A stretch of DNA of 64,000 nucleotides from Cladosporium halotolerans (lineage: Eukaryota), in the NCBI RefSeq assembly GCF_011745625.1, contig NW_027191470.1, positions 1 through 64,000 of the forward strand. Direction: 5' to 3'. The notes beneath the pieces were generated by a model, which ran no database searches, was not told the origin of the DNA, and saw nothing but the letters and a program-made list of their open reading frames with translations. Shown piece by piece: positions 6,072-39,162 of the stretch. Position 1 is the stretch's first letter, and each line of letters begins with the position of its first letter. Position numbers and translations under genes: made by a program.

Positions 6072-7413
6072 ATGACTGTTCAAGTCTTCGCGGTGTCGGG
6101 TATGCGCAGTTCTTTTCCATCGCTGGGTATACACACGTAAGCTAATGTGCGCAGTGTTCTTCATTTGTTTCAGAGAATGTATCGAAACGAGCATTGTGGT
6201 TTCTGTCTTGCTTGCGTTCCTCAAGCAGACACTCGGAGACCAAAATGATTCCGTGTACAAGAAACTCATGAGACAGGTTAGTAACACCCTGCCAGATGAG
6301 TCGATGCCATGCTCACACACCTCGAGGTATGGTTCGGTGTTGGCCTTGGCCTCCTGATCGTCGTCATCATCGGCGCGGGGATGATAGGCGCTTTCTACGG
6401 TCTTCAGAAGGATATTTTTGCAAAGGCTGAAGATCTCTGGGAAGGTTTGTCCGAAGATTCGAGGACTCATCAGAGCCTACATGCGTTTATTTGCGCCTGA
6501 CACATCACATAGGCATCTTCAGCATGATTGCTGCGGTCATCATTTCTGTAATGGGCGCAGCACTACTGCGCGTCAATAAATTGCAAGACAAGTGGCGGGT
6601 CAAATTGACCAAAGCCCTCGAGACTCGTGGAAAACAGCAAAGAAGTCGGGTCAAATTCTCCACCCGGGTCAAGAGGTGGTGCGAGAAATACGCCATGTTC
6701 CTTCTCCCTTTCGTAACAGTCCTCCGCGAAGGTCTAGAAGCCGTCGTCTACATCGGAGGTGTGAGTCTGGGCCTGCCTGCAACCTCTTTCCCACTTCCAG
6801 TTGTTTGTGGAATCCTGGCAGGGTGCTTGGTGGGATATGTCATCTATCGGTAGGTGCATGCAGATATTGAACACCCATGACCATGCCGCTGACCCATCGC
6901 AGAGGCGGACGAGGCCCAAGCCTCCAGATCTTCCTCATCATATCCACTTGCTTCCTATACCTTGTTGCAGCAGGATTGTTCTCTCGCGGCGTCTGGTACT
7001 TCGAGAACTACCGATGGGGTCTTGCCATCGGCGGTGATGCCGCAGAGACTGGCTCTGGTCCCGGCTCGTACGACATTCGACAGAGCGTGTGGCATGTCAA
7101 CTGCTGCAACCCTTTATTAAATGGGGGTGGCGGATGGGGCATCTTCAACGCTGTCCTTGGGTGGCAAAACTCTGCTACATACGGCTCGGTCATTTCGTAC
7201 AACCTCTACTGGCTCGCTATCATGTGCACGTTCCTCTATATGCGTTGGCAGGAGAAAAGGAGCGCGAGCAATGGAACGACACAGAACGGACAAGACTCTG
7301 GTAGCGGAGATGATGCAGATAAAAAGGAAGTACCCGCCAGCCAGGCTAGAGAGGTCGATCATGCCAAGGCTACAGAAAATGCCGAAGCAAGAGTTGCCGT
7401 TTCCAGTGTTTGA
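6072..7413 (+). CDS. ftr1: High-affinity iron permease (Ftr1/FtrA), multi-exon
   Basis: ATG at 6072 and first intron at 6100-6154. Contains two RExxE motifs (FRECIE, LREGLE), [25 protein letters not shown] and [18 protein letters not shown]. Confidence 0.95.
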
Positions 7414-38351: not shown

Positions 38352-38959
38352 TGAGCAAGGAGAGCGGGAAAGCGAAGGAGAAGATGTTTATGACAAGTCC
38401 TTGCCTTTTTGTCAACTTCGGGAATATTTCATGTGCAGATGCCGCGCCCGGTAGCGCAGGTACCCGTGGAGAAGGCCCGGCGCGCTCGTCACACAGGTGA
38501 GCGCGAGGGCGGTGCAGTGCGACGTAGTTGTTAGGGAAGATGTGGACGGGTGGCGTCATGTAGAGTACTTGTGGCGCGGCATACTATACTGTAAAAACGG
38601 ATGGGAAGTTGCGGCGAGATGCAATGCGCCGAATCAGGGGCGTCTGCCGCATTGGACAAATATATGCTTCCTCGGCTCGACAGGTGAAGTGGTTTCAAGG
38701 AGGCAAGGCAAAGCCAAGGCAGGAACGACGTCGACTGACAAATCAGTACTCATCCATTGACAATCTTATATTGTGGTCAAAGACCATAGTCCCGACGTCC
38801 AAATGATATAGTCAATGTCTTGTGATGAAAAAGCTGCATCACAATAAATGTCCACGAGGGTTGTTCTAGATTCCGTCACAAGTCGAGGGCATCCTTGGCT
38901 TAAGATTTATGTGAGATTTATAATGCAATAGATTCCAGTTTGCGTCATCAGCAACCAAT

Positions 38960-39150
38960 GGCACTTTGGGTAAGCTTGCACCAAGTATCCTTCTGGTCAT
39001 CTCAGGCATTAACAAATTCTCCAGCGGAGTGGTTAACGCGCTGCCCTGCTAAGGCAGTTCCGTAAGTCATGCCTCAGACATTCCATGTCGTCGATCAAGT
39101 CCTAACAGCCATCCAGTTCGGGAGCGTGTGTTCGAATCACACAGGTGTCG
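38960..39150 (+). tRNA. tRNA-Ser(GCU) interrupted by two spliceosomal-type introns (38970-39024, 39062-39116)
   Basis: Spliced 81-nt product: GGCACTTTGG|CGGAGTGGTTAACGCGCTGCCCTGCTAAGGCAGTTCC|TTCGGGAGCGTGTGTTCGAATCACACAGGTGTCG. Acceptor GGCACTT/AGGTGTC with discriminator G, D-stem GCG/CGC, anticodon stem CTGCC/GGCAG with GCT, variable arm TTCC-TTCG-GGAG, T arm GTGTG-TTCGAAT-CACAC. Confidence 0.9.
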
Positions 39151-39155
39151 ATATA

Positions 39156-39162
39156 TTTTTTT
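39156..39162 (+). terminator. Pol III-type oligo-T terminator after the tRNA
   Basis: T7 run beginning 5 nt after the discriminator base. Confidence 0.75.

Follow-up and report, generated by a model that had tools for sequence, protein, structure and literature searches.

A tRNA-Ser(GCU) gene of Cladosporium halotolerans with a split A-box and two introns of the spliceosomal type

A split tRNA gene in the window

The window, meaning the whole 64,000-nt stretch of DNA that was analysed, carries a nuclear tRNA-Ser(GCU) gene at 38960-39150 on the + strand. Direct reading of the letters resolves this gene into three exons and two 55-nt GT-AG introns. ARAGORN called no tRNA anywhere in the window, Rfam RF00005 returned a partial tRNA match (39023-39142, 31.2 bits), and the exons, once joined, give an 81-nt tRNA that ARAGORN calls tRNA-Ser(gct). 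The neighbours are a chitin-synthase-like gene upstream (minus strand, divergent), a DUF7730 frame, Fis1 and a dual-specificity phosphatase, a set that together with the intron signals suggests a filamentous fungus.

A first-pass annotation of this DNA had placed the TATA-like element, intron 1, the A-box split, the B-box and the T7 run, and each of these positions is correct on direct reading, including those of the B-box and terminator that it described as intact (39130-39138 and 39156-39162). Its account did not contain the CATCA motif at 38946-38950 or the in-register half A-box at the exon 1/intron 1 junction. The features of the locus are as follows.

38917-38924, + strand: TATA-like element TTTATAAT, a probable TBP/TFIIIB site judged from its sequence
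38946-38950, + strand: CATCA start-region motif; start predicted near A38947, with a 13-nt leader
38960-38969, + strand: exon 1, the 5' acceptor strand plus bases 8-10; same letters in 5/5 copies; pairs with 39143-39149
38967-38978, + strand: in-register half A-box TGGGTAAGCTTG at exon 1/5' splice site; keeps T8, G10, A14, G15 and C16; no G18
38970-39024, + strand: intron 1, 55 nt, GTAAGC ... TTAAC (39009-39013) ... CAG; spliceosomal type; cuts the A-box after base 10
39022-39032, + strand: 'rebuilt' A-box-like word CAGCGGAGTGG made of 3' splice site and exon 2; no T8; 55 nt downstream of the native T8 (38967)
39025-39061, + strand: exon 2, D arm and anticodon arm; anticodon GCT at 39048-39050; RF00005 match; compensatory stem changes in L055 and L056
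39062-39116, + strand: intron 2, 55 nt, in the variable arm, GTAAGT ... CTAAC (39102-39106) ... CAG; in 3/5 genome copies
39117-39150, + strand: exon 3, variable arm, T arm, 3' acceptor strand and G73
39130-39138, + strand: B-box GTTCGAATC, intact; matches GTTCRANYC; identical in 5/5 copies
39156-39162, + strand: T7 Pol III terminator, read directly; a run of T5 or longer within 30 nt past the 3' end in 5/5 copies

Copies and relatives of the gene

A copy census of the genome, made with a 20-letter search of the anticodon arm and two mismatches allowed, returned six matches. Five are Ser(GCT) genes, all with intron 1 after base 10 and three also with intron 2, which is missing at the exact site in the paralogs L055 and L056. 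The sixth match, L054, was judged not to be a tRNA and was excluded. Pattern searches of the assembly (27.9 Mb in 691 contigs, possibly incomplete) found no intron-free Ser(GCT) copy, and the anticodon GCT is absent from all 131 ordinary tRNA genes collected, a set that does not amount to the whole tRNA complement. Because all five copies carry intron 1 and no intron-free copy was found, decoding of the serine AGY codons appears to depend on transcription of exon 1.

Metagenome loci extend this comparison. The joined 81-nt tRNA-Ser is 1-5 differences away from 10 of the 119 loci listed, all ten intronless, and intron 1 is missing from the close intronless relatives of the gene among the loci compared. 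Both of the window's insertion sites recur in 3 of these 119 (L106, L119 and L151, apparently from one assembly). Intron 1 thus occupies the same site in 5/5 genome copies and in L106 and L119; L151 breaks off in intron 1 and shows just its 3' end. The exon 1 sequence is unchanged in L106 and L119 as well as in the genome copies, and the intron interiors diverge yet retain their splice signals. Two further Ser(GCT) genes among the 119, L103 and L129, pair a canonical intron with a GT-AG insert placed elsewhere: L103 has it in the T stem's 3' strand, and L129 in the variable arm, one base off the window's intron 2 site. Within the genome, a single tRNA-Leu(UAA) gene (L224/L276; G000:C394:981318-981480, minus strand) has a 55-nt GT-AG intron after base 14 in addition to a canonical intron. 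Ser(GCT) 5' halves also occur on two other metagenome contigs, L184 and L158, and neither has a B-box within 200 nt; a long insert may be present in L184, and L158 continues into telomere-like repeats.

Intron signals and sequencing reads

In all copies, both introns show a GTRNGY 5' site, a branch word and a YAG 3' site, which are the signals of U2-type introns. The 16 complete inserts of this type in the tRNA genes compared all start with GT, end with AG, contain a branch-like word and measure 48-67 nt, like the window's two spliced mRNA introns. The two sites, one following base 10 and the other in the variable arm, lie away from the canonical endonuclease position, one base 3' of the anticodon. 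The ordinary endonuclease introns of the genome follow the anticodon and carry no GT-AG or branch signals.

Neither intron contains a run of T4 or longer, as the first-pass annotation had reported. As a sign of selection, the missing T4 was rejected: 9 of 56 background intron-like stretches contain one, which gives a pair of T4-free introns a chance of about 70% and makes the absence uninformative. Runs of T4 also occur in 6/131 ordinary gene bodies, and the spliceosomal-type intron of the tRNA-Leu gene L224 does contain one.

Four sequencing runs (X1, X6, X10 and X11) were compared with the window, and their RNA or DNA nature was judged from their behaviour; X10 and X11 have no tRNA coverage. 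Run X6 has exact mRNA splice joints nearby and is RNA-like. One of its contigs (186 nt, depth 4) bridges 38959-39141, through exon 1, both introns and the B-box, with 24 letters different. This weakly suggests an unspliced precursor that includes exon 1, since a paralog or carried-over DNA may be its source and a start cannot be read from contigs. In the same RNA-like run, no spliced tRNA junction was found; its uncovered flanks were left out of account.

Run X1 has even cover and retains the chitin-synthase intron, so it is DNA-like, and it appears to mix several related strains. A GT..AG joint at 39061-39117 in this run was rejected as evidence of splicing, because the run is DNA-like and paralogs without intron 2 exist. 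One X1 contig tracks the flank at 38444-38792 and rejoins the window at 39024, with about 164 letters between instead of 231, and a loose end has exon 1 directly adjoining exon 2. From these two observations, a close relative probably lacks intron 1 at this same locus and another relative has it, a presence/absence difference among relatives.

Upstream elements and the predicted start

The promoter elements were compared with a reference set of 131 ordinary nuclear tRNA genes of the same genome, with same-size flank windows as background. A TATA-like word was defined by a regular expression of our own and sought at -60 to -25, and seven loci on C628 and C235, both organelle-like contigs, are excluded from all counts. 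In the window's gene, TTTATAA at 38917-38923 occupies -43 to -37 from G1 (38960) and is the sole TTTATAA on either strand of the window. The first-pass annotation had placed it about 40 nt upstream of G1, which is accurate, and the word stands well above background (45/131 ordinary tRNA genes vs 9/655 flank windows). Likewise, CATC[AC] occurs within 30 nt upstream of 55/131 ordinary genes vs 44/786 flank windows. The TATA-to-CATC spacing is 26-29 nt in 18 of the 23 ordinary genes that have both, and the window's gene, with TATA at -43 and CATC at -14, has a spacing of 29 nt. With TATA in a third of ordinary tRNA genes, at the same distance from CATCA, the idea that the element marks a special promoter class is not supported. 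Beyond the TATA and CATCA words, no upstream block common to the paralogs was found.

TATA-like words occur in 5/6 split genes of the genome vs 45/131 ordinary ones (one-sided Fisher p = 0.024, with five of the six split genes being paralogs); against one- or two-copy tRNA families (18/35) the same comparison gives p = 0.16. This is a hint that split genes lean on TATA more than ordinary tRNA genes do. A strict TATA word is missing from L055 and L119. Across the eight split genes compared, TATA words stand at the register of the native gene in 6/8 and at the register of the rebuilt A-box in 0/8, and the earlier proposal that upstream or TATA elements set the start is on this evidence probably right. 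No shift of TATA further upstream in split genes is claimed (Mann-Whitney p = 0.11).

In Pol III genes, TBP sits about 30 nt upstream of the start. Combined with the position of the TATA and its ordinary spacing to CATC, this predicts a start at A38947, upstream of exon 1, and a first exon of 23 nt. The S. pombe tRNA genes rely on upstream TATA boxes, located at -20 to -35 from the start, according to the accessible part of PMC4600332.

The two halves of the A-box

A type 2 promoter calls for a whole A-box about 20 nt past the start, and the window's gene has none there. Two candidate words are present instead, one at each end of intron 1. The scoring used a weight matrix of 35 distinct A-box contexts taken from the genome; because the search for these contexts demanded T8 and A14, the invariance of both is partly built in. 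The rebuilt box scores 6.3-6.4 bits, at the low end of ordinary A-boxes (1.5-15.5 bits by leave-one-out, median about 12.5), and is the top-scoring A-box-like site in 5/5 genome copies. The junction scores -2.0 bits with the GG term, a value also reached by 2% of window positions. Over positions 8-16 alone, both score 2.8 bits, a tie that exists because the 5' splice site GTAAGC sets A, G and C at 14-16. By the four-letter rule TNGNNNANNNG, as given in the available text of PMC11724288, each has 3/4.

The first-pass annotation had held that the terminal CAG of intron 1 nearly rebuilds the A-box. The word exists at the coordinates given, but it is forced by the splice site, and its standing as a meaningful element is not supported: exon 2 supplies 8 of the 11 letters and the AG belongs to the obligatory 3' splice site, so that one mismatch or none follows from any YAG intron placed here. 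The splice-neutral TAG, which would score 12.5 bits, is found in none of 8 intron 1 ends, all from related copies, against 15/56 in the background. A selective preference for CAG over TAG at intron 1 was rejected, as 41/56 background ends are CAG and the difference is not significant.

Other split genes resolve the two ends differently. In L055 and L119, A14 is lost at the junction, and in the tRNA-Leu gene L224 the 3' side scores -3.2 bits, with no rebuild, and junction positions 8-16 score 10.0 bits; neither A-box half is thus a general solution. What stays constant across split genes is the B-box, the T-run and mostly the TATA. The native A-to-B distance in the window's gene is 163 nt vs 41-117 in 81 ordinary genes, and the rebuilt box lies 108 nt from the B-box.

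Work on yeast, in the portion of PMC11724288 that is available, attributes most TFIIIC affinity to the B-box and reports that a misplaced pseudo-A-box failed to replace the real A-box. According to the same text, an A-box mutant of S. cerevisiae lost TFIIIB placement despite a TATA-like element, so half an A-box may not suffice.

Box-like words also turn up inside or beside introns of other split genes. Intron 1 of L119 contains an A-box-like word of 8.8 bits (+16), L053 has a B-box-like word overlapping the 5' splice site of intron 2, and the variable-arm insert of L129 contains a B-box-like word.

The U6 gene and the class of promoter

The genome's single U6 match, L206 (G000:C196, minus strand; U6 match 7144-7246 plus about 105 nt upstream), is interrupted by two GT-AG introns of 54 and 45 nt. 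It has a TATA at about -27, a 13.5-bit A-box in intron 1, a B-box in intron 2 and a T-run; its A-box, at +33, is later than usual. A Pol III-type gene with spliceosomal introns is therefore already present in this organism, and Pol II, which the first-pass annotation had offered as an alternative, need not be invoked for the tRNA gene.

In the promoter itself, an intragenic B-box and a T-run terminator accompany a TFIIIC in the organism (the Tau95 subunit, PF09734, matched at E 3.3e-37, one subunit only), as expected of type 2. The B-box is kept in all copies and is also required for tRNA structure. The TATA-to-CATC distance of 29 nt agrees with other tRNA genes of the genome, as in the S. pombe type, the start itself being predicted. 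The SNAPc and PSE of the type 3 promoter of vertebrate U6 did not appear; SNAPC3 (PF12251), the one SNAPc subunit sought, had no match at E <= 1 in an exon-wise search of the possibly incomplete assembly. Fungal U6 promoters, with TATA, A block, B block and TFIIIC, are set apart from vertebrate type 3 promoters with PSE and SNAPc in the accessible text of PMC5855946. The U6-type promoter proposed earlier accordingly survives in the fungal sense, TATA plus TFIIIC boxes, and fails in the vertebrate type 3 or SNAPc sense. The promoter is less exotic than had been supposed.

Comparison with known systems

Spliceosomal introns in fungal U6 genes, including that of S. pombe, trace to Tani and Ohshima 1989 and Canzler et al. 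2016, as cited in the part of PMC5855946 available, which describes S. pombe U6 as spliced by the spliceosome. The tRNA-Ser gene resembles these as a short Pol III-type non-coding RNA gene whose introns have a canonical 5' splice site, branch site and 3' splice site. It differs in that the host is a tRNA with its promoter within the coding sequence, so that an intron interrupts a promoter box; the opposite holds for this genome's U6, where the introns supply the A- and B-boxes.

With the S. pombe type of tRNA promoter (Hamada et al. 2001, cited in the available portion of PMC4600332) the gene shares a TATA about 30 nt before the predicted start, an internal B-box and a T-run. The A-box, whole in that type, is here in two halves 55 nt apart, and a strict TATA word is found in only about a third of this genome's tRNA genes. 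S. cerevisiae SNR6, as far as PMC5855946 and PMC11346459 are available, is comparable in being TFIIIC-dependent and TATA-aided with a long A-to-B distance (about 200 bp, vs 163 here), and according to the former yeast U6 is functional with about 200 bp separating A block from B block. In SNR6, unlike here, the A block is intact, the B block is extragenic and introns are absent. Vertebrate U6 of type 3 (DSE, PSE/SNAPc and TATA with no A- or B-box, in the same part of PMC5855946) has the upstream TATA as its sole likeness; the B-box is intact in all copies here, and the genome search gave no SNAPC3 match.

Proposed expression of the gene and alternatives

The gene, with its split A-box, is probably transcribed by Pol III in a TATA-anchored, TFIIIC-dependent manner, and its precursor probably has its introns removed by the spliceosome; this assessment is drawn from sequence comparisons. 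It would be a working nuclear tRNA-Ser(GCU) gene with a TATA-assisted type 2 promoter. TFIIIC would grip it via the intact B-box, with half an A-box on offer either in register at exon 1/5' splice site or at the 3' splice site, 55 nt further downstream. The TATA at -43 would fix TBP and TFIIIB, leading to a start near 38947, inclusion of exon 1 and an end at T7. The resulting precursor of about 210 nt would lose both introns via the major spliceosome, like fission yeast U6 and as this genome's U6 must, and would then be trimmed to the 81-nt tRNA. Against this stands the description of Pol III transcripts, such as Alu RNA, as without spliceosomal splicing in the accessible part of bioRxiv 10.64898/2026.09.26.754642.

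The rebuilt word could figure in two other schemes. TFIIIC might bind the rebuilt CAG box with TFIIIB far upstream on the TATA and the intron DNA bent or looped, which would place the A-box about 75 nt from the start instead of about 20. The word's rank as the best A-box-like site in 5/5 copies, its score inside the ordinary range, its ordinary 108-nt distance to the B-box and the late A-box of the genome's U6 all speak for such an arrangement. It is nevertheless unlikely, as the word is forced by the splice consensus and lacks T8, as L224 has the same upstream layout without any rebuilt box, and as the misplaced pseudo-A-box was no substitute in yeast; the 0/8 count of 12.5-bit TAG ends adds a weak argument, given the related copies. 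The same word in normal geometry would have Pol III start in intron 1 near 39002, so that exon 1 is lost, the product is dead or not a tRNA, and the real tRNA comes from an unassembled intron-free gene. The 691-contig assembly leaves room for such a gene, and the DNA-like run X1, from related strains, has an intron-1-free exon junction behind a window-like flank. This is an improbable account, however, of a locus whose exon 1 is identical in 5/5 copies and in L106 and L119, with introns diverged but splice signals kept, where 0/8 split genes have a TATA at the required register and assembly searches found no intron-free copy.

The polymerase and the splicing machinery might also differ. Transcription by Pol II from the TATA would give a capped precursor that is spliced as it is being transcribed, before RNase P and RNase Z cut it. 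Pol II transcripts are the normal setting of spliceosomal splicing (PMC12530127 and bioRxiv 10.64898/2026.09.26.754642, in the parts available), the A-box is broken, and the divergent chitin-synthase-like gene shares the upstream region. Runs of T5 or longer follow 5/5 copies at unrelated loci, however, which favours Pol III termination; the upstream layout is that of ordinary tRNA genes, and the genome's U6 joins the same intron type to full Pol III signals. We give Pol II a low probability. Non-canonical tRNA-endonuclease introns occur in archaea and some algae, a precedent for Pol III transcription as proposed above with the inserts cut by the tRNA endonuclease at non-canonical sites. That route is very improbable in view of the GT...AG ends, branch-like word and mRNA-intron-like length in 16/16 whole inserts, features foreign to the genome's ordinary endonuclease introns after the anticodon.

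Under the proposed Pol III and spliceosome route, a wider reading is conceivable and is put forward tentatively. The sole route to tRNA-Ser(GCU) in these fungi may be an uncapped Pol III transcript passing through the spliceosome. Gain of an intron in the A-box may have led to an A-box-independent promoter in which TATA and B-box set the start, and introns of Pol III genes may persist just where a TATA, 5' splice-site letters or intron-borne boxes rescue the promoter (U6, L119, L053 and L129).

Significance and further Pol III-like loci

To our knowledge, spliceosomal splicing of a Pol III product has so far been established for fungal U6 only. A literature search with most subscription journals outside its coverage found no description of spliceosomal introns in tRNA genes. 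If the proposed route is true, an essential tRNA would come from Pol III and be spliced by the spliceosome without a cap or coupling to Pol II. The gene would be a small natural test system for the portion of the A-box that TFIIIC requires in the presence of a TATA, and for recognition by U1 of an uncapped transcript with a 23-nt first exon. In practical terms, tRNA finders miss whole isoacceptors in such genomes, as ARAGORN does here.

Several other loci with Pol III-like signals were encountered. A multi-copy family of non-tRNA elements of about 200 nt (L059, L071, L074, L080, L081, L220, L221, L229, L231 and L251) combines TATA, A-box, B-box and T-run; five members tested gave no Rfam match, and Rfam at E <= 0.1 returned nothing in 6/6 tested loci with Pol III-like signals. 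L218 (G000:C318:58150-58700) and L078 (G000:C100:267640) have A-box-like and B-box words and a T-run and are uncalled by ARAGORN or Rfam; L218 also has a branch-like word and a CAG. At L237 (G000:C332:20302-20495), finally, two tRNA-Arg(ACG) genes are separated by 122 nt free of any T-run and may form one dicistronic transcript.
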